Origin: Promethearchaeota archaeon
Lineage (GTDB): Archaea; Asgardarchaeota; Lokiarchaeia; Sigyniarchaeales; SOKP01
NCBI GenBank assembly: GCA_016839555.1
Contig: JAEOUA010000012.1
Span: 1 to 64,000 of the forward strand
Reading direction: 5' to 3'
Length of the DNA stretch: 64,000 nucleotides
This document shows positions 45,875 through 52,577 of this stretch, one piece after another (positions within the stretch are counted from its first letter, which is position 1; the number at the start of each line of letters is the position of its first letter). The notes beneath the pieces were generated by a model that saw nothing but the letters and a program-made list of their open reading frames with translations, was not told the origin of the DNA and searched no databases. Position numbers and translations under genes: made by a program.

Positions 45875-46036
45875 GTGACCCCCGAATTAGATGACGAATT
45901 AAAAAATGAGATTAGAAAAGGAGTAAAGCTCCAAAAAGTCGATGAGGCGGAGTTAAGAAGGAGGGAAGAAGAGAAAAAAAAGCGACTAGCAGAGCTTGAA
46001 AAAGTAAAACAAGCCCTTGAAAAGCCAAATCCATAA
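45875..46036 (+). CDS. 53-aa WH2-motif microprotein (absent from the ORF track), candidate actin-monomer-binding protein
   Basis: GTG start after AAGGTGTG. Translation MTPELDDELKNEIRKGVKLQKVDEAELRRREEEKKKRLAELEKVKQALEKPNP. Purine-rich coding composition in an AT-rich gap; T-tract downstream. Confidence 0.8.
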   Translation: MTPELDDELKNEIRKGVKLQKVDEAELRRREEEKKKRLAELEKVKQALEKPNP

Positions 46037-46056
46037 ATAATAACTTGTTTTATTGC

Positions 46057-46076
46057 TATTTTTTTATTTTTTTTTG
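46057..46076 (+). terminator. Archaeal-type oligo-T terminator after the WH2 microprotein gene
   Basis: Two adjacent T-runs ~20 nt after the TAA stop. Confidence 0.45.
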
Positions 46077-46187
46077 AATAGATTTTAAATCCATTAATTT
46101 AAAATAGTTTTTTCTTATTAGAATTAATCTTTTCTTTTACGCTTTACTCTTATATTCAAATAATATCAAATAGGCTTACGGATCACA

Positions 46188-47261
46188 ATGAGAATTCTAG
46201 CACAAGATAAAAAAAAAGGAGAAATCACGGTAATAGTAGAAAATCTAAATGATTTATGGTCATTATATAATATTATTACTAAAGGGGATACAGTGATCGC
46301 TTTAACTCAAAGAAGGGTTGTTATGAAAGAAGGTTCTACAGGGGAGAGAAAATTGATGAAACTAACATTATCTGTAGAGGATGCTGCATTCCATGAATTT
46401 ACTAACCGATTGCGGATAAAGGGGACCATTTTAGAAGGACCTAAGGATTATGTAAGCTATGGGTCTTATCATACATTTAATATAGAAATAAATCATGAAC
46501 TCACTATAATAAAAGATGAATGGTTAAATCAAGATCTCAAGAGATTAAAAGAGTCTTCTAAATTATCATCAAATTTTGTTATGTTAATAATAGCTATTGA
46601 ATCTGGATTAGCAAATATCGCTTACTCTACAAATTATAGTTATAAGAAAATTGCAACTGTTACTAAAAATATTCCGGGAAAGCGATATGAGCAATCATTT
46701 CGCAATAAATTTTTAAAAGATTTTTTTGAGGACATTAAAAGGATTATTGAAACTAGAGTTCAAAATAAGGATGTGAATCTTATAATCCTATGTGGTCCGG
46801 GTACTATCAAAGATAAATTAGCAAAACATCTCAAAGCAACTGCTAATGAGGAATATATTAATAAAATAAAAGTAATCCAAGCGAGTTCAGGAACGGAAAG
46901 TGCTATTTATGAGGCATTAAAATCTGATGAAATGGCTAATATAAAAAATAAAGCAAAAATTCTCCAAGAAACAAAAAAAATTGAAAATGTATTAGCTCAA
47001 TTTGGGAAGGATCCCGATCTTGTCGCAATTGGATTCGATGAAATTACTGAAGCGGCACAAAGAGGTGCTATTGACCAGTTATTAGTCGCAGATACTATAA
47101 TTCGAGGAGCTTCTAAATCAAACAGATTAAAAATAGAGGATATAATAAACCAAGTGGAATATGCAGGGGGAAAAGTCGATATTTTAAATTCAAAACATCC
47201 CGCAGGAGAGCGGCTAGTCGACTTAGGCTCACTTGTGGGAATTTTACGATATAAATTCTGA
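46188..47261 (+). CDS. pelA: Pelota / Dom34 ribosome rescue factor
   Basis: NDLWSLYNII, FHEFTNRLRIKG, GSYHT, IPGKR, GPG, H.AGERL..LGSLVGILRY. Confidence 0.95.
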   Translation: MRILAQDKKKGEITVIVENLNDLWSLYNIITKGDTVIALTQRRVVMKEGSTGERKLMKLTLSVEDAAFHEFTNRLRIKGTILEGPKDYVSYGSYHTFNIEINHELTIIKDEWLNQDLKRLKESSKLSSNFVMLIIAIESGLANIAYSTNYSYKKIATVTKNIPGKRYEQSFRNKFLKDFFEDIKRIIETRVQNKDVNLIILCGPGTIKDKLAKHLKATANEEYINKIKVIQASSGTESAIYEALKSDEMANIKNKAKILQETKKIENVLAQFGKDPDLVAIGFDEITEAAQRGAIDQLLVADTIIRGASKSNRLKIEDIINQVEYAGGKVDILNSKHPAGERLVDLGSLVGILRYKF

Positions 47262-47291
47262 TTATAGGCAAATCTCTAATTAATAACTTTC

Positions 47292-48347
47292 ATGGTAAAA
47301 ATTAAAAAATCCGATATGAATGAAATTATATATGTGAATAAAAAATCGAAAATCCCATTATTGGGTTTAGATTTTCTGGGAATTATAGATCGGGGTACAA
47401 ATATTATTGAATTAAAGCCAATCACTTTATGTAATCTAAAATGCCGATATTGTTTTGTAAGTGCTGGAGAATATGATACTAATTTTATAATCGATTCTCA
47501 ATACCTGATAGAACAAGTCCAGACAATTGCTGAATTCAAAGGACATTATAATCTCGAAATTCACTTAGCCCCCTACGGAGAAATCTTACTATATAAGAAT
47601 TTATATGATCTTATTGATTCTCTATGGGAAATCAAGGGAATTGAGATTATTTCGATGCAAACAAACGGTTTACTACTAAATCCTGATATTATTAAGGAAT
47701 TTTCAGAGCATAATTTAACAAGAATTAATATAAGTGTAAATACTTTTAATCCTCGACTTGCTCAATATCTATGTGCTACTGATAACTATAATGTGGAAAT
47801 TCTATTAAGAAATATTCATATGTTATTAGACTCTAATATTAATGTTTTAATTGCTCCGGTTTGGTTTCCCGGTGAAAACAGAAATGATATCATGGAAATT
47901 ATTCAATTTATAGTAAATTTAAGAGATGAAGGATATACTAAAGAGCAAATTCAATTAGGGATTCAAAAATATTTAGTATATAAAACAGGAAGGAAATTAA
48001 AAAAAATCAAACCTAGGTCTTGGGGGTATTTTTATCACCAATTATCTGAGTTAGAAAATAAATATAATATTAAATTGAAATTAGGACCGAAAGATTTTGG
48101 AATTCATTCTCGCCCACTTTTTAATTTTCCCCTTAAAGAAGGTGAGATCATTTCAGTTGAAATTGTCTCTAAAGGAAGGTGGAAGAATGAATGTATTGGT
48201 AAAATAAATAATCAATTTTGTACTAAAGTCCTTTTAAATTATCCATTAGAGTATTCGAAAGATCTATTAGGGAAGAATATTAAGGTTAAGATATTAAAAG
48301 CAAAGAATACGGAGAATCTAATAACTTCATATGTGCCCTATCAATGA
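47292..48347 (+). CDS. Archaeal radical SAM protein with C-terminal TRAM-like domain (COG2100-like)
   Basis: GIIDRGTNIIE, CNLKCRYC, SMQTNG, LIAPVW.PG.N, IQKY..YKTGR. Confidence 0.88.
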   Translation: MVKIKKSDMNEIIYVNKKSKIPLLGLDFLGIIDRGTNIIELKPITLCNLKCRYCFVSAGEYDTNFIIDSQYLIEQVQTIAEFKGHYNLEIHLAPYGEILLYKNLYDLIDSLWEIKGIEIISMQTNGLLLNPDIIKEFSEHNLTRINISVNTFNPRLAQYLCATDNYNVEILLRNIHMLLDSNINVLIAPVWFPGENRNDIMEIIQFIVNLRDEGYTKEQIQLGIQKYLVYKTGRKLKKIKPRSWGYFYHQLSELENKYNIKLKLGPKDFGIHSRPLFNFPLKEGEIISVEIVSKGRWKNECIGKINNQFCTKVLLNYPLEYSKDLLGKNIKVKILKAKNTENLITSYVPYQ

Positions 48348-48580
48348 TATATTATTAAAAATACTCTTAATATTTCGCTGCTTTGAAGATAGAGAATAAT
48401 ATAAAAGGAAATAATGAGGTTTTTTTTCAACAAAATAATCTCTCTAAAGAATTTAGAAAAATTGAGAAAAACGAATCTACATTAAATTGATCTATTAGAA
48501 CATAAATATAAATAGTCTCTCTTTTTATAAATTATACAAGAATAATTCAAATTAATATCTATTTGAAAAAATAAATTATT

Positions 48581-49219
48581 GTGAGTCTTATGCCCATTTT
48601 AACGAGTGAAGATGAATTAGATTTATCAAAATTAGAAAATGAATTAGCTAATGAATTAGAAAACCATGCGAAGGCAGAAAATAAAGTAGTTAAAGCAAGA
48701 AAAAAATTAGCCGAAAAAGTAACTGATATGTATATTACACGAGGATCCTTTAACAGAACTATGCGAGATGTGTTAAAACAAATACAGATGCTCGCCCGAG
48801 AACATAAATCAAACGTGAAAGAGGAAGATGTTAATGCCCTCACAGATCTAATAAAAAGAAGCGAAATAAATCTCGAAGCACATAAAAAATATGTTGATGT
48901 GATCAAAGAATTAACCTTAAGAAAGGATTATATGATTGAAAAGCAAATTGAATTTGCTCAAGCTTTAAAAATTGTTGCCGATAGAAGAAAGGTAGTAATT
49001 AAAAAAGCTTTAGATGTTGAAAAGATAAAAAATAAGATGGTAGAAGGCGATAAATTAAAAGAATTGGATCAAGAACAAAAAGATAAACAGAGAGAATTCG
49101 ATAGAGCAAGGGATATTCTCCTAAAAAAAATTGAGCAATTTAAAGATGTGTGCGATGAGATTCAATCAGATCTCTCGAAAAATAAAGATATTCTTAGCGA
49201 TCCCCATGCCTATTTATAA
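48581..49219 (+). CDS. All-helical coiled-coil protein, BAR-domain-like
   Basis: ~210 aa forming three long amphipathic helices with a basic tip RRKVVIKK...KIKNK. DKLKEL...REFDRARDILLKKIEQF resembles SNX/Vps5-type BAR helix 3. Fold is inferred. Confidence 0.55.
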   Translation: MSLMPILTSEDELDLSKLENELANELENHAKAENKVVKARKKLAEKVTDMYITRGSFNRTMRDVLKQIQMLAREHKSNVKEEDVNALTDLIKRSEINLEAHKKYVDVIKELTLRKDYMIEKQIEFAQALKIVADRRKVVIKKALDVEKIKNKMVEGDKLKELDQEQKDKQREFDRARDILLKKIEQFKDVCDEIQSDLSKNKDILSDPHAYL

Positions 49220-49526
49220 TTAGTATTTCCGTTTGCTAAATCTTAATGTTTTCACAATCACTTTCTCTCATATTCCTTTTTTCTTATTATTTCTAATTAA
49301 AATTAATTCATTAAAAAAATGGAGTAATTCATCGAATTATTTCCTTAGATAAACTCATTTTTATGTTGACATAAAAGAATAAGGAATATAGGATAAAGAT
49401 TAAATATAAATATAAAAATTAATATAAAATAATAGTAGATTAAAAATAGTAAATGGGAATAAAATTAGAAAAAATTATTTTTAATTTATCCTAAATAAAG
49501 AAAACGAGAAAAAAAGGAGTATTAAA

Positions 49527-50009
49527 ATGGCAGAAGAATTCACACGCTACTTAGAAGAAGCCAGAAAGGAACCTTTGGAACAAAAGGTGAATGACTTTGG
49601 CGAAATTGTAGAAAAAATAATGCGTATTATCCTTAAAATCCCTGATTTAGTGGATCAATCACTTGGGAGAATGAACCAAAAAATATCCGCATTAGAATCT
49701 AACATTAATCGATTAAATAATCAAATATCAAGCGGTCAACCATCAGCTGGTGGTTCAGCACCAGAGATTGGTGCCTCAGTACCGAAAGCTAGTGTCTCAT
49801 CACTTTCAGCCCCAAGTGGTCCTCCGGGAACACCCCCACCCTCAAGTGGTCCTCCGGGAACACCACCTCCTTCGGGCGGTCCCCCAGGTGGTCCCCCAGG
49901 AGGTCCTCCAGGTGGCTCACCAAGACCAGCTGGGCCTGTATCATTACGAGGGGCTATTATGAGTGAATTAAAAGAATTGTTCGCAAAGAGACAGCAATCT
50001 CAAGGCTAA
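49527..50009 (+). CDS. Coiled-coil + polyproline + C-terminal WH2/FAB-like helix protein (candidate actin assembly factor)
   Basis: AAGGAG before the ATG; heptad coiled coil in aa ~15-68; GPPGTPPP x2 and GGPP x3; ends LRGAIMSELKELFAKR. Confidence 0.7.
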   Translation: MAEEFTRYLEEARKEPLEQKVNDFGEIVEKIMRIILKIPDLVDQSLGRMNQKISALESNINRLNNQISSGQPSAGGSAPEIGASVPKASVSSLSAPSGPPGTPPPSSGPPGTPPPSGGPPGGPPGGPPGGSPRPAGPVSLRGAIMSELKELFAKRQQSQG

Positions 50010-50254
50010 TTTATTAGAATTAAAAGCTCTACTTAATCTGATGATTTATTTAACCAATCTCTTTTCTATTTTATATTATTTTACCTGAAGAATCCCCATT
50101 CTTTTGAAGAGATAAATATTTTTTACTTTTTTAGTTATAAGAAGAAAAGTTTTATTAATTCATGGAAATGTATTTAGATAGCAAAAAATTAAAAAAAATC
50201 TAAAAACTAAAAACATTATAATATTTAAAATATTTTGGAGGAATTTTAAATCTA

Positions 50255-51994
50255 TTGTCTAAATTTGGAACAATTACTGACTCGAACAAAAATGTGAAGG
50301 TTCATCACGATCTGATGCGACAAGTCTTAGAAATTCTGTCCCTCATTAGAGTGATGAATAATTATTATTATAAAAAAAAAGAAATTCAAGAGAAGATTAG
50401 ACCTACCATCTCCTCTTTTATCTATGAATTAAAAGGATTAGAGAAAAACAAGGACTGGCTTTTTAGTATTCCTTCCGTATTAAGTACTATTAATCAAGAA
50501 TTTGTCAACAAAAACGATTCCTTTCGATTTCCAGACGGTATTATCCTTTTTGAAGCATGGATGAATTTAGGTCTCGAAAGTTTATATCCGCAGATTGTAT
50601 TTTGCTTTAAGGTTCCTGGTTTTCTTAAAGGTGAGAAATCTCGATATATTTTTCAGTTTGTTTTTTCCATATCACGAGGAATTGGATTCCCGATCTATTT
50701 TTCTCCAGAATATTATAATTATACTCCTAAATTTTTGAAATATCTAAATCCTCTATTTAAATGGATTTATAAAATTTCCCATTTTAACAATATTCTTATA
50801 AAAGGAGCGATTGAAAATAGATTAAATACAAAACGGCATCATCCTGGTGAATTCGAATCGGTAATTATTTCTGAATTTGAGAATAATATCTATAAAGGAA
50901 TTAATACTCTCTTTCATGGCTATTTTACGAATGAACCAAAACTATTAGGTAAGTTCAATTCTTTAAATGAAGTCTTAGAAAAGATTATTTTTTCTTATAG
51001 AATTGGAGACCATGCGATGTGTGTACTGAATGCTTCTGATAAGGATATGCCCTATCTTAACATTCCTTTAGTCGATTACAAGTTAATAAAACAAAGATAT
51101 GAAGTAGATTTCTATTCATATATTGAAAAATTAATGAATGTAAATAATCTTCTATCCAAAAAAAGCGATTATTATTATAGAAAAGGAAAATACCTTATAT
51201 TAAATCTCCCTCTTGTGGAAAAATTTAAATTTTTGTTTTATATTATAAAAAAGATATTTCTTCCAACCCAAAAGATACCAGATAAATTTGAAAATATTGA
51301 AAATTACCATAAACATAAACATTTACTCGAACATTTACGAAATTTATTATGGACCACACCCTTATATTGCCACACAATCCATGATCCTTCTAGAATAAAA
51401 GAAATTTTTAAGTTTTCCCAAAAACCGGAGGAGTTAGATGAATTTGAATATGAAATAACTTCCAGAGAGTCAATTTTTTTCTCTTTTATAAAATCGTTTG
51501 AAAAAGAAAAACAATTTAGATTTGAGAATGAAGAAGTAATCAATGCATTGGGAGATTTACGAGATAGCATGGCTAAGATGTGGTTATATTTTAGGGAAAG
51601 ACATTTCAACTCCGCTATTAGAAAATTGAATACGCTTGTAAATCTCTCAGTAGATAATAAAAATTACAAAAGCATTATAAAACAAACCATTAAACAATTA
51701 ATTCCAATCATGGCAGTGTATGAAATTTTCATCAGACCTTTGTCGAATTCTTTCTTTCCAGAATCAATTCCCCAAACTAAGCGTTTAGGTGCTTACCTTG
51801 CAAAATTTTTTACCTCAAAATATAATCCTCTGGGTCTGAGTTTAATTAATTTTTTTAATAAACTCGCATATCGAAATTGGGCAAATCTGGTATTGAATAA
51901 AAAACTAAATAGAAGAGAATTTTTCAATTTAATAGTTAAATTACCAATTTGGAAACATATCCCAAATTATATCCGGGACTTCGTATTAGATTGA
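50255..51994 (+). CDS. Large hypothetical, mostly helical protein
   Basis: 579-aa ORF, GGAGG upstream of the TTG; no recognisable motif. Confidence 0.7.
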   Translation: MSKFGTITDSNKNVKVHHDLMRQVLEILSLIRVMNNYYYKKKEIQEKIRPTISSFIYELKGLEKNKDWLFSIPSVLSTINQEFVNKNDSFRFPDGIILFEAWMNLGLESLYPQIVFCFKVPGFLKGEKSRYIFQFVFSISRGIGFPIYFSPEYYNYTPKFLKYLNPLFKWIYKISHFNNILIKGAIENRLNTKRHHPGEFESVIISEFENNIYKGINTLFHGYFTNEPKLLGKFNSLNEVLEKIIFSYRIGDHAMCVLNASDKDMPYLNIPLVDYKLIKQRYEVDFYSYIEKLMNVNNLLSKKSDYYYRKGKYLILNLPLVEKFKFLFYIIKKIFLPTQKIPDKFENIENYHKHKHLLEHLRNLLWTTPLYCHTIHDPSRIKEIFKFSQKPEELDEFEYEITSRESIFFSFIKSFEKEKQFRFENEEVINALGDLRDSMAKMWLYFRERHFNSAIRKLNTLVNLSVDNKNYKSIIKQTIKQLIPIMAVYEIFIRPLSNSFFPESIPQTKRLGAYLAKFFTSKYNPLGLSLINFFNKLAYRNWANLVLNKKLNRREFFNLIVKLPIWKHIPNYIRDFVLD

Positions 51995-51995
51995 C

Positions 51996-52577
51996 TTAAA
52001 ATTCTAAAAAACCAGGGTCATCAAATAAATCTTCTATATCTTTCTTCTTTTTGATCCCCGTTTCTTCGTGCTCTGAAAACAAACTATCCTCATCTGTTTT
52101 AATACCTGATTCTAATTCGCTAGTTTCTAATTCAAGTAAAGCATCCTTCTCCAAGCTTTTATATTTGCTACTTTTTTCTTTCCATTCTTGTATCTCGTCC
52201 ATATCATAATCTCCCTCATCTAAAAGTTGCGCGGCTTTTACTCTACAAAGATCCGATAAGATTGAAAACGCAAATGCCAACTCTCCCCACTCTTTGTTCT
52301 CTTTTAATTTATTGATTCGCTTTTTTAACCGCTGAATCTCTTGCTCAGCATAATATATATCGATAAAATCTCCAAAAGCATCCACAGGTTCGGAAATTGA
52401 ATTAATTAACACTTCTTTTTCTAAACCACAATTTCCACACTTAACTGTGGCAAAACCTCCCTTCTCTCGTAGATTCTCTACTTTAACTGATTTTTCCCCG
52501 CATTGGGGGCATGTAAAAATTTTTGGGAGTTTTTTAACTCTCCGATAAGTGGTTTGTTTTCGTTTACGACGCCCCAT
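51996..52577 (-). CDS. elf1: Transcription elongation factor Elf1 with long C-terminal extension
   Basis: MGRRKRK...LPKIFTCPQCG...CGNCG...EPVDAFGDFID; AAGGAG upstream. Confidence 0.9.
   Translation of the reverse strand: MGRRKRKQTTYRRVKKLPKIFTCPQCGEKSVKVENLREKGGFATVKCGNCGLEKEVLINSISEPVDAFGDFIDIYYAEQEIQRLKKRINKLKENKEWGELAFAFSILSDLCRVKAAQLLDEGDYDMDEIQEWKEKSSKYKSLEKDALLELETSELESGIKTDEDSLFSEHEETGIKKKKDIEDLFDDPGFLEF

Follow-up and report, generated by a model that had tools for sequence, protein, structure and literature searches.

A proposed membrane-actin locus of an Asgard archaeon is probably an inherited collinear chromosome stretch that encodes a candidate actin-associated microprotein

The window analysed here covers the opening 64 kb of contig 12 (JAEOUA010000012.1) of an Asgard archaeal genome (3.74 Mb, 92% complete). 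Between positions 45875 and 51994 it carries four uncharacterised genes, whose products of 53, 212, 160 and 579 residues we call p53, p212, p160 and p579. The first-pass annotation of the window had read them as parts of a membrane-actin assembly module. We propose instead that the locus is probably not a dedicated module. It is better described as an inherited collinear stretch of chromosome, with four probably separately transcribed genes of differing ages. One of them, p53, would encode a single actin-associated unit that works like a WH2 or thymosin motif. We hold this account with moderate confidence, and that assessment covers jointly the non-module locus and the roles proposed below for p53, p212, p160 and p579.

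The source genome has eight actin-family matches (best E 4e-134). Lokiarchaeum ossiferum, Harpocratesius and Prometheoarchaeum MK-D1 are of the same order as this genome, which is placed in a separate family, here called f1. The sister family, f2, includes the closed genomes of L. ossiferum, Harpocratesius repetitus and Prometheoarchaeum MK-D1. Some metagenome bins bear NCBI class labels (Thor, Hod, Heimdall) for proteins that are ~50% identical; these labels look unreliable and were not used for taxonomy.

Gene order, phyletic range and transcription

Gene order is constant over ~12 kb in 20 of 20 f1 loci. The order is nucleotidyltransferase, radical SAM, GNAT, p53, pelota, radical SAM, p212, p160, p579 and, on the opposite strand, Elf1, followed by further genes. 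Because this constant block also spans housekeeping genes, we take the collinearity to be inherited and not the product of selective clustering. Distances of 55 to ~390 kb separate the p53-like, p160 and p212 genes in the three closed genomes of f2. In distant lineages p160 adjoins unrelated housekeeping genes: phosphoglucomutase, VTT/DedA, UbiA, PIG-L, tRNA endonuclease or uracil-DNA glycosylase.

For the phyletic ranges, each protein and later profiles were searched against 151 genomes from across the phylum; the p53 unit was sought in 400 genomes. The protein p160 was found in 91 of the 151 genomes, across many families. For p212 the count was 26, in f1 and f2 only. Matches to p579 occurred in 33 genomes, mostly in f1 (21 of 25 there), and the relatives elsewhere are partial, at ~430 residues. 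The p53 unit is present in 165 of the 400 genomes, namely 125 of 134 in f1, 13 of 14 in f2, and further genomes of families f28, f29 and f12; apart from f12, all of these fall in a single order. The f12 matches (19 of 19) are weak, scoring 17-18 bits with an f1-only model and covering the N-terminal half alone.

The first-pass annotation had proposed synteny and co-occurrence as a check on its module, and had named unlinked genes and differing phylogenetic profiles in relatives as grounds for giving it up. Linkage is kept in f1 only; in f2 and in distant relatives the genes are unlinked, and the ranges run from family-only to phylum-wide. Because relatives show both, the claim of a membrane-actin module is not upheld. 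Gene neighbourhood inside a single family is no evidence for a 'proto-WAVE complex'.

The features of the locus are as follows.

45875-46036, plus strand: p53, a 53-residue microprotein; conserved open reading frame of 50-58 residues with a coding codon pattern
45887-45943, plus strand: p53 residues 5-23, putative WH2/beta-thymosin-like helix plus LQKV
45944-46024, plus strand: p53 residues 24-50, putative conserved charged helix
46188-47261, plus strand: pelota (mRNA surveillance); TIGR00111, E 3.7e-78, with eRF1 domains 1-3
47292-48347, plus strand: radical SAM enzyme with a TRAM-like C-terminus; PF04055, E 5e-24
48590-49219, plus strand (frame open from a GTG at 48581): p212, a three-helix bundle in its AlphaFold2 model, BAR-compatible
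49527-50009, plus strand: p160; more than 190 clusters, conserved N-terminus and C-terminal motif
49527-49736, plus strand: p160 N-terminal helical/coiled-coil domain
49737-49925, plus strand: p160 Gly/Pro-rich polyproline tract
49926-49994, plus strand: p160 near-invariant C-terminal motif, PxSLRGAIMxELKxLFxKR
50255-51994, plus strand: p579, mixed alpha/beta, family-restricted; invariant RHHPGEFE, HGY, GDH and HxxH
51996-52577, minus strand: Elf1, with an acidic C-terminal extension of ~100 residues

All six plus-strand open reading frames (ORFs) named in the first-pass annotation are present. The four uncharacterised ORFs are genuine genes rather than chance ORFs. Across f1, p212, p160 and p579 keep 40-65% identity; the conservation of p53 is described below. 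Apart from the 30-nucleotide gap between pelota and the radical SAM gene, the spacers are 150-307 nucleotides long, have 15-19% G+C and contain runs of at least six T past the stop codons. Since T-runs and AT-rich spacers occupy every gap except that one, the four genes are likely to be separate transcription units. The earlier caution that this is not clearly one operon was well placed: the gaps of 233, 307 and 245 nucleotides each have a run of at least six T past the stop.

The p53 unit, alone and in larger proteins

Orthologues of p53 are ORFs of 50-58 residues with 64-77% identity. Differences per site at codon positions 1, 2 and 3 are 0.23, 0.16 and 0.49, which is a coding pattern. Judged by its codons, p53 is a conserved microprotein under purifying selection. 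The sequence AAAGGTG is found 6-7 nucleotides 5' of the GTG start, and runs of seven and nine T follow the stop.

The conserved core of the family is LDDELKxEIKKGVxLQKVDE followed by REEEKKKRMEELEKVKxAL. Residues E8, L9, I13 and L19 are invariant. The spacing of L9, I13, G16, L19 and V22 equals that of WH2, and the L, I, G and L of this series are invariant or nearly so. Among 177,635 PDB sequences the best match of p53 was the N-WASP tandem WH2 construct 3m3n_W, with E values (0.08, and 0.04 with a profile) that are not significant. The alignment places DELKNEIRKGVKLQKVDE against DALLDQIRQGIQLKKVEQ, in which L, I, G, L and V have the same spacing. By eye, the f2 orthologues especially have a beta-thymosin-like architecture. 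On the letters of p53 alone, the likeness to WH2 is weak.

The actin reading of the p53 unit gains weight because profilin fusions and ten-repeat proteins provide two independent lines of support. In ~250-residue proteins, forming at least 45 clusters from many metagenomes, the unit follows a profilin domain. The profilin part matches the solved Asgard profilin 5zza_P (E 2e-9). The fusion is kept down to ~47% identity, with the F, F, G, L, E and D of the unit invariant. In f2, proteins of ~490 residues consist of about ten tandem units with a period of ~47 residues (L. ossiferum, Harpocratesius and MK-D1).

The ten-repeat protein of L. ossiferum has 488 residues and a monoisotopic mass of 56.41 kDa. 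We matched it to GNAMCCOK_04085 by gene order, by its own mass, by the masses of 47.31 kDa three genes before and 57.98 kDa two genes after, and by the tag offset from the 2DGel1 gelsolin. The identifier comes from a study of crawling motility in L. ossiferum (preprint 10.1101/2025.11.30.690169, published as PMC13716822). In its anti-Lokiactin co-immunoprecipitation, GNAMCCOK_04085 was enriched by 4.53 log2 units (adjusted P 0.0021), with 44 peptides and 70.5% coverage (10.1101/2025.11.30.690169, Suppl. Table 2). Its row is directly above that of Lokiactin itself, at log2 4.44 (10.1101/2025.11.30.690169). Profilins, gelsolins, an Arf GTPase and BAR proteins are named in the main text, and a term search of that text showed no other protein (PMC13716822).

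The p53 unit is probably actin-related. We regard it as an actin-associated motif working like WH2 or thymosin, and we infer direct binding. The first-pass label of a WH2 microprotein thus holds as far as an actin-associated motif is concerned, through the profilin fusion and the co-immunoprecipitated ten-repeat protein. It does not hold as an assignment to the Pfam WH2 family, and the single-unit orthologue is only weakly enriched. In the mechanism that we propose, p53 would be one unit of ~47 residues, made of an amphipathic helix, Gly-x-x-Leu-x-Lys-Val/Pro and a charged helix, and would bind actin in the manner of WH2 or beta-thymosin. The first helix may sit in the barbed-face cleft; LxKV and the second helix would extend up the monomer or follow a strand of a filament. 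A single unit could then be a low-affinity binder of monomers or filaments, and the profilin-fused and ten-repeat forms would be high-avidity versions of it.

The p53 unit resembles WH2 (PF02205; N-WASP, WAVE, WIP, Spire, Cordon-bleu) in being short and in occurring both alone and in tandem. Its helix has hydrophobic residues at i and i+4 and a Gly three residues later, and its Leu-x-Lys-Val is spaced as in LLxxIxxGxxLKKV. A second helix after the LxKV part recalls thymosin, and the tandem arrays recall eukaryotic nucleators. Linkage to profilin has a parallel in the trypanosomatid profilin with a WH2-like insert (PMC10907219). Unlike WH2 and thymosin, the unit does not score as a match to the Pfam models of either family. 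In place of the basic pair of LKKV it has variable residues (Q, E, S, D or P). At ~27 residues its second helix is long, and it is also conserved and strongly charged; the repeat period is ~47.

In the literature on Asgard archaea and WH2 we found only a four-residue, LKKT-like gelsolin linker described, and no description of the p53 microprotein, the profilin fusion or the ten-repeat protein. That linker, in two-domain gelsolins, is given as LVDV in Loki and as LRRV or LKHV in Thor and Heimdall, and the WH2-like linkers are described as contacting actin in crystal structures (PMC9433394, PMC7444086). Unlike the p53 unit, these motifs are four residues long, and they have no independent helix-plus-LxKV, microprotein, profilin fusion or array. 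The p53 unit may also be set beside a crenarchaeal peptide. Arcadin-2 of Crenarchaeota binds crenactin through a short C-terminal helix, so that a small helical peptide regulates an actin homologue through a hydrophobic groove. It differs from the p53 unit in lineage, is unrelated in sequence, and has no LxKV and no tandem or profilin-fused forms.

Units of the p53 type also occur in two other settings. One follows a ribbon-helix-helix (NikA-like) domain in a 118-residue protein (genome G113), and others are C-terminal in coiled-coil proteins of ~250 residues, after a proline-rich stretch (genus g4). The source genome has further profilin-domain proteins. In a 420-residue protein (C7:296256-297518, minus strand), a profilin-like domain at the N-terminus is combined with a TrmB-type winged-helix domain; the gene for this protein is directly downstream of a second lokiactin paralogue (C7:297275-298411). 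A third profilin-like protein, of 285 residues (C1:395603-396460), has a long helical tail.

Two other proteins of the co-immunoprecipitation table are recorded here for themselves. GNAMCCOK_04250 (20.61 kDa, log2 5.11, 91.7% coverage) has the row directly above the ten-repeat protein, and GNAMCCOK_03900 (6.54 kDa) has a log2 value of 2.53 with an adjusted P of 0.004 (10.1101/2025.11.30.690169). Neither is in the identifier table of the preprint (Suppl. Table 3).

p160, p212, p579 and the neighbouring genes

The p160 family comprises more than 190 clusters. Its members share a near-invariant MAEEF...IPDLVDQS, a heptad stretch, a Gly/Pro-rich tract and the motif RPxSPxSLRGAIMxELKxLFxKR. The C-terminal motif is recognisable across the phylum, with LRGAI..ELK.LF invariant. 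No Pfam or NCBIfam family matched p160. The motif recurs in other proteins. In MK-D1, polyproline plus LRGGMTEELKTLFSK is found in DSAG12_01673 (E 2e-9), a 697-residue protein with a C-terminal membrane anchor. Its gene is 135 nucleotides downstream of, and co-oriented with, that of the two-domain gelsolin MKD1-2DGel. In the source genome, a 515-residue Arf-family GTPase (C4:29634-31178, minus strand; PF00025, E 3e-22) has a long C-terminal extension that ends in a polyproline run and SMLSELKDLFVKR, a weaker instance of the p160 motif (hidden Markov model E 0.005 within the proteome). We sought the motif in the L. ossiferum genome on account of the Arf GTPase in the co-immunoprecipitation, and there p160 alone carries it. 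Recurrence of the motif in DSAG12_01673 and in the Arf GTPase hints at a shared partner of its bearers, possibly in the actin or membrane sphere.

We propose that p160 would act as a phylum-wide adaptor. Its N-terminal coiled coil may oligomerise, and its flexible polyproline tract would lead to a C-terminal helix through which, as a portable docking motif, p160 would engage a conserved partner. Like Ena/VASP, WASP/WAVE and verprolin, p160 combines a coiled coil, a polyproline tract and a conserved, amphipathic, basic C-terminal helix; the pattern RxAhhxEL recalls the first helix of WH2. Unlike Ena/VASP and WASP/WAVE, it lacks EVH1, WH1 and SCAR homology domains, an LKKV and an acidic tail, and the co-immunoprecipitation entries listed give it no association with actin. 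Of the VASP/WAVE-like polyproline factor that the first-pass annotation saw here, the polyproline tract and conserved C-terminal helix stand, and no similarity to BRK1, WAVE or VASP was detected. A relationship to BRK1 was considered and dropped, the PDB profile search having placed it at E 0.51 among generic coiled coils. The same search matched RhoGAP9 through the proline tract only. Kinship of the p160 C-terminus with the p53 unit was also set aside; hhalign pairs ELKxxI with ELKxLF at E 0.31, which is not significant.

The surroundings of p160 vary. A VTT/DedA-type membrane protein (PF09335) is encoded next to or near the p160 homologue in the three distant families f3, f21 and f12, in some cases with a UbiA prenyltransferase too. 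Local synteny could explain this, or it may point to a link with membranes. In f2, Elf1 and p160 share a strand, with Elf1 immediately upstream; next comes a membrane protein whose C-terminus is hexapeptide-repeat-like. In f1 Elf1 is convergent with p579.

For p212, the 212-residue ORF at 48581-49219 of the first-pass annotation is open as described, but its start needs revision. We favour the ATG at 48590 (209 residues) because orthologues begin MPI(I/V)TH and a 209-residue form is on record. An AlphaFold2 model built with 20 orthologues (predicted local distance difference test score, pLDDT, 90.5) has helices at residues 9-73, 81-151 and 156-200; this model and that of p579 are monomers. Foldseek returned no match below E 0.02, and most of its weak rows were BAR domains. 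The Foldseek-independent VIA search ranked arfaptin first (Z 13.0, root-mean-square deviation 5.0, 189 residues aligned), with IMD (12.3), SNX1 (11.8) and FAM92A1 (11.1) further down, and I-BAR, Lsp1, SNX5 and ACAP1 also present. Seven of its top nine rows were BAR-superfamily domains. An atlas search by shape again listed arfaptin first (template modelling score, TM, 0.60), and a language-model search placed p212 near an Asgard FAM92/BAR cluster (0.86).

Like members of the BAR superfamily (arfaptin, SNX-BAR, I-BAR/IMD and FAM92/CIBAR), p212 has ~210 residues in three long antiparallel helices. Unlike them, it is matched by no BAR-type model over threshold, and it scores no higher against BAR domains than against unrelated bundles. 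The only BAR-type Pfam family seen was FCH, under its cut-off (E 0.014-0.025) and in 4 of 20 members; PF03114 and PF06730 had no match in the source genome. As a description of the modelled shape, BAR-like is fair and goes no further. The annotation's BAR-like claim is therefore kept for fold compatibility and given up as a specific assignment. By its accession offset and by two masses, the L. ossiferum orthologue UYP46261.1 corresponds to GNAMCCOK_02568, about the 46th most abundant protein in the proteome table (10.1101/2025.11.30.690169). It is not one of the two BAR proteins of that study, which are named as UYP45610.1 and UYP47554.1; in the literature found, BAR proteins figure solely as by-catch of the pull-down. 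We suggest that p212 is an abundant, elongated three-helix-bundle protein that may be a BAR-type membrane scaffold.

The largest of the four proteins, p579, had been described as a large helical unknown. Its model (pLDDT 69) is mixed alpha/beta instead, with about ten beta strands plus helices. Its place in an actin or membrane module also falls away: no evidence links it to either, and several f1 members lack it. It was not found in genomes G132, G150, G019 and G117, and G083 has a remnant only. Among the f1 loci, two genomes have no p579 in the interval from p160 to Elf1, and a third retains a remnant there. When 1.84 billion representatives were searched exhaustively with a profile, only 25 proteins were found, mostly fragments. 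The remote relatives belong to no Pfam family, and the language-model atlas gave no usable match. The 15 best Foldseek rows were NLPs (E 0.055-0.65), VIA gave Z 5.7-6.6 to that fold over 138-156 residues, and the invariant RHHPGEFE resembles the NLP cation-binding GHRHDWE-type motif only loosely. We regard this likeness to the NLP/NPP1 toxin fold as too weak to use. The protein p579 is dispensable and mainly restricted to f1.

Of all the named genes, only pelota and the radical SAM gene have Pfam or NCBIfam families; none was found for p53, p212, p160 or p579. The interleaved pelota gene is a housekeeping gene outside any actin function. The radical SAM gene starts 30 nucleotides past pelota, is probably co-transcribed with it and is likewise outside actin function. 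In the NCBIfam search its product has generic MoaA-like similarity, and its resemblance to pVip in PADLOC is also generic and confined to the radical-SAM core. We dropped a defence-island reading because PADLOC assigns no defence family to any of the four uncharacterised proteins.

Competing explanations and significance for Asgard actin

The proposal that we set against our account is that the genes are co-located because their products cooperate. In it, p212 is a BAR-like curvature sensor, p160 as the polyproline factor oligomerises and recruits profilin-actin, p53 supplies monomers as a WH2 peptide, and p579 is a further subunit. Co-orientation and the fixed order of the 20 f1 loci fit such a module, as do the independent actin link of the p53 unit, the BAR-compatible shape of p212, and the BAR-domain proteins and Arf GTPase published in the Lokiactin co-immunoprecipitation of L. 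ossiferum (PMC13716822). A further point in its favour, which tells against our own account, is that p212 is directly upstream of p160, adjacent and co-oriented, in 24 of 25 f1 genomes; an adjacency confined to one lineage could still be functional. The collinearity is not specific to these genes, however, and takes in pelota, two radical SAM genes, GNAT, Elf1 and more. Homologues are dispersed in the closed sister-family genomes, phyletic ranges vary, p579 has been lost in several genomes where the others stay, and the spacers have terminator-like T-runs. In the co-immunoprecipitation, the p212 orthologue reached 0.71 log2 (adjusted P 0.053), and the p160 orthologue, GNAMCCOK_02219, is expressed and is not among the entries listed (10.1101/2025.11.30.690169); both points count against a module, and within our account they also tell against the roles proposed for p212 and p160. 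Further points against a module concern profilin. Loki profilins reportedly do not bind polyproline, a result said to come from Akil and Robinson in 2018. Archaeal profilins are described as associating with polyproline by a mechanism apparently divergent from that of eukaryotic profilin (PMC10907219). All this makes a functional module improbable. We give just as little credence to its broader form, in which Loki-type Asgards would keep as separate small proteins and portable motifs (a WH2-like unit, a polyproline-plus-helix docking motif and a BAR-type scaffold) what was later fused in eukaryotic factors of the WASP/WAVE/VASP type, with the f1 genes side by side through cooperation at actin-filled protrusions.

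Each of the proposed roles has its own alternative. The WH2 likeness of p53 might be coincidental, p53 being a generic charged helical peptide of the single-alpha-helix or coiled-coil kind with a non-actin or nonspecific role, and its ten-repeat relative having come down indirectly through cross-linking, stickiness or antibody cross-reaction. Several results weigh against our reading here. Pfam WH2 (PF02205) misses p53 at E<=1 and 20 of 20 family members at E<=10. A PF02205 scan of the whole genome at E<=10 did not list the p53 ORF, although HMMER filters may hide very weak matches. The Thymosin model (PF01290) was likewise without a match in 20 of 20 family members at a cut-off as loose as E 10, and the single-unit orthologue of MK-D1, when searched against the PDB, gave neither a thymosin nor a WH2 match. 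The PDB matches at E 0.04-0.08 stood alongside coiled coils such as M protein. A WH2 regular expression matches three proteins of the source proteome, compared with 1.5 in shuffles, which is chance level, and the basic pair of LKKV is not conserved in relatives of p53 (LQKV, LDKV, LSPV, LEKP). The gene adjoins pelota in f1 and a ZPR1-like gene in f2, both of them translation-related. As to the pull-down, formaldehyde cross-linking was used (PMC13716822), so the ten-repeat protein could have come down indirectly. Many unrelated proteins also passed as nominally significant with lower ratios, Elf1 with log2 1.36 among them, and the single-unit orthologue GNAMCCOK_02436 (8.24 kDa as called) was detected at 0.57 log2, which is not significant (10.1101/2025.11.30.690169). 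Nevertheless, without a role in actin biology it would be difficult to account for a profilin fusion that recurs and is kept down to ~47% identity. Enrichment of the ten-repeat protein is as strong as that of the bait itself, with the peptide number and coverage given above, and the residues that the family keeps invariant coincide exactly with the WH2 contact positions. We therefore consider coincidence unlikely, and prefer an actin-associated p53 unit. The choice is much closer for p212. It may instead be some other abundant long helical bundle, such as a cytoskeletal or structural coiled coil, an ESCRT-III/PspA-like protein or a secretion-type protein, with its adjacency to p160 a historical accident. 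Unrelated bundles are interleaved with BAR domains in the VIA list (SipB, Z 11.6; PE/PPE, 10.1), where by the tool's own warning Z below ~13 is common for helical bundles; the arfaptin value of Z 13 lies inside the span that the tool gives for unrelated ones. WXG100-type and SLT_2-associated clusters score 0.63-0.67 TM in the atlas search, and a trypanosome receptor heads the Foldseek list. No BAR, FAM92, arfaptin or IMD sequence model reaches threshold, hhalign gives p212 and L. ossiferum Bar2 a probability of 0.9% with no profile similarity, and the automatic UniRef name is 'Chromosome partition protein Smc'. Against this stand the first rank of arfaptin in two independent shape searches, the prevalence of BAR domains among the top VIA rows, the language-model placement, and a size and three-helix topology as in a BAR monomer. 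On balance, we put a non-BAR bundle at slightly under an even chance, and the BAR-type scaffold is retained tentatively.

The p160 family and its portable C-terminal motif extend across the phylum. For Asgard actin, to our knowledge only profilins and gelsolins have been characterised, and we know of no nucleator or filament-length factor. For the nucleation, stabilisation and anchoring of Lokiactin filaments in Asgards, the p53 unit, alone, fused to profilin or repeated ten times, would be a concrete, peptide-sized candidate.

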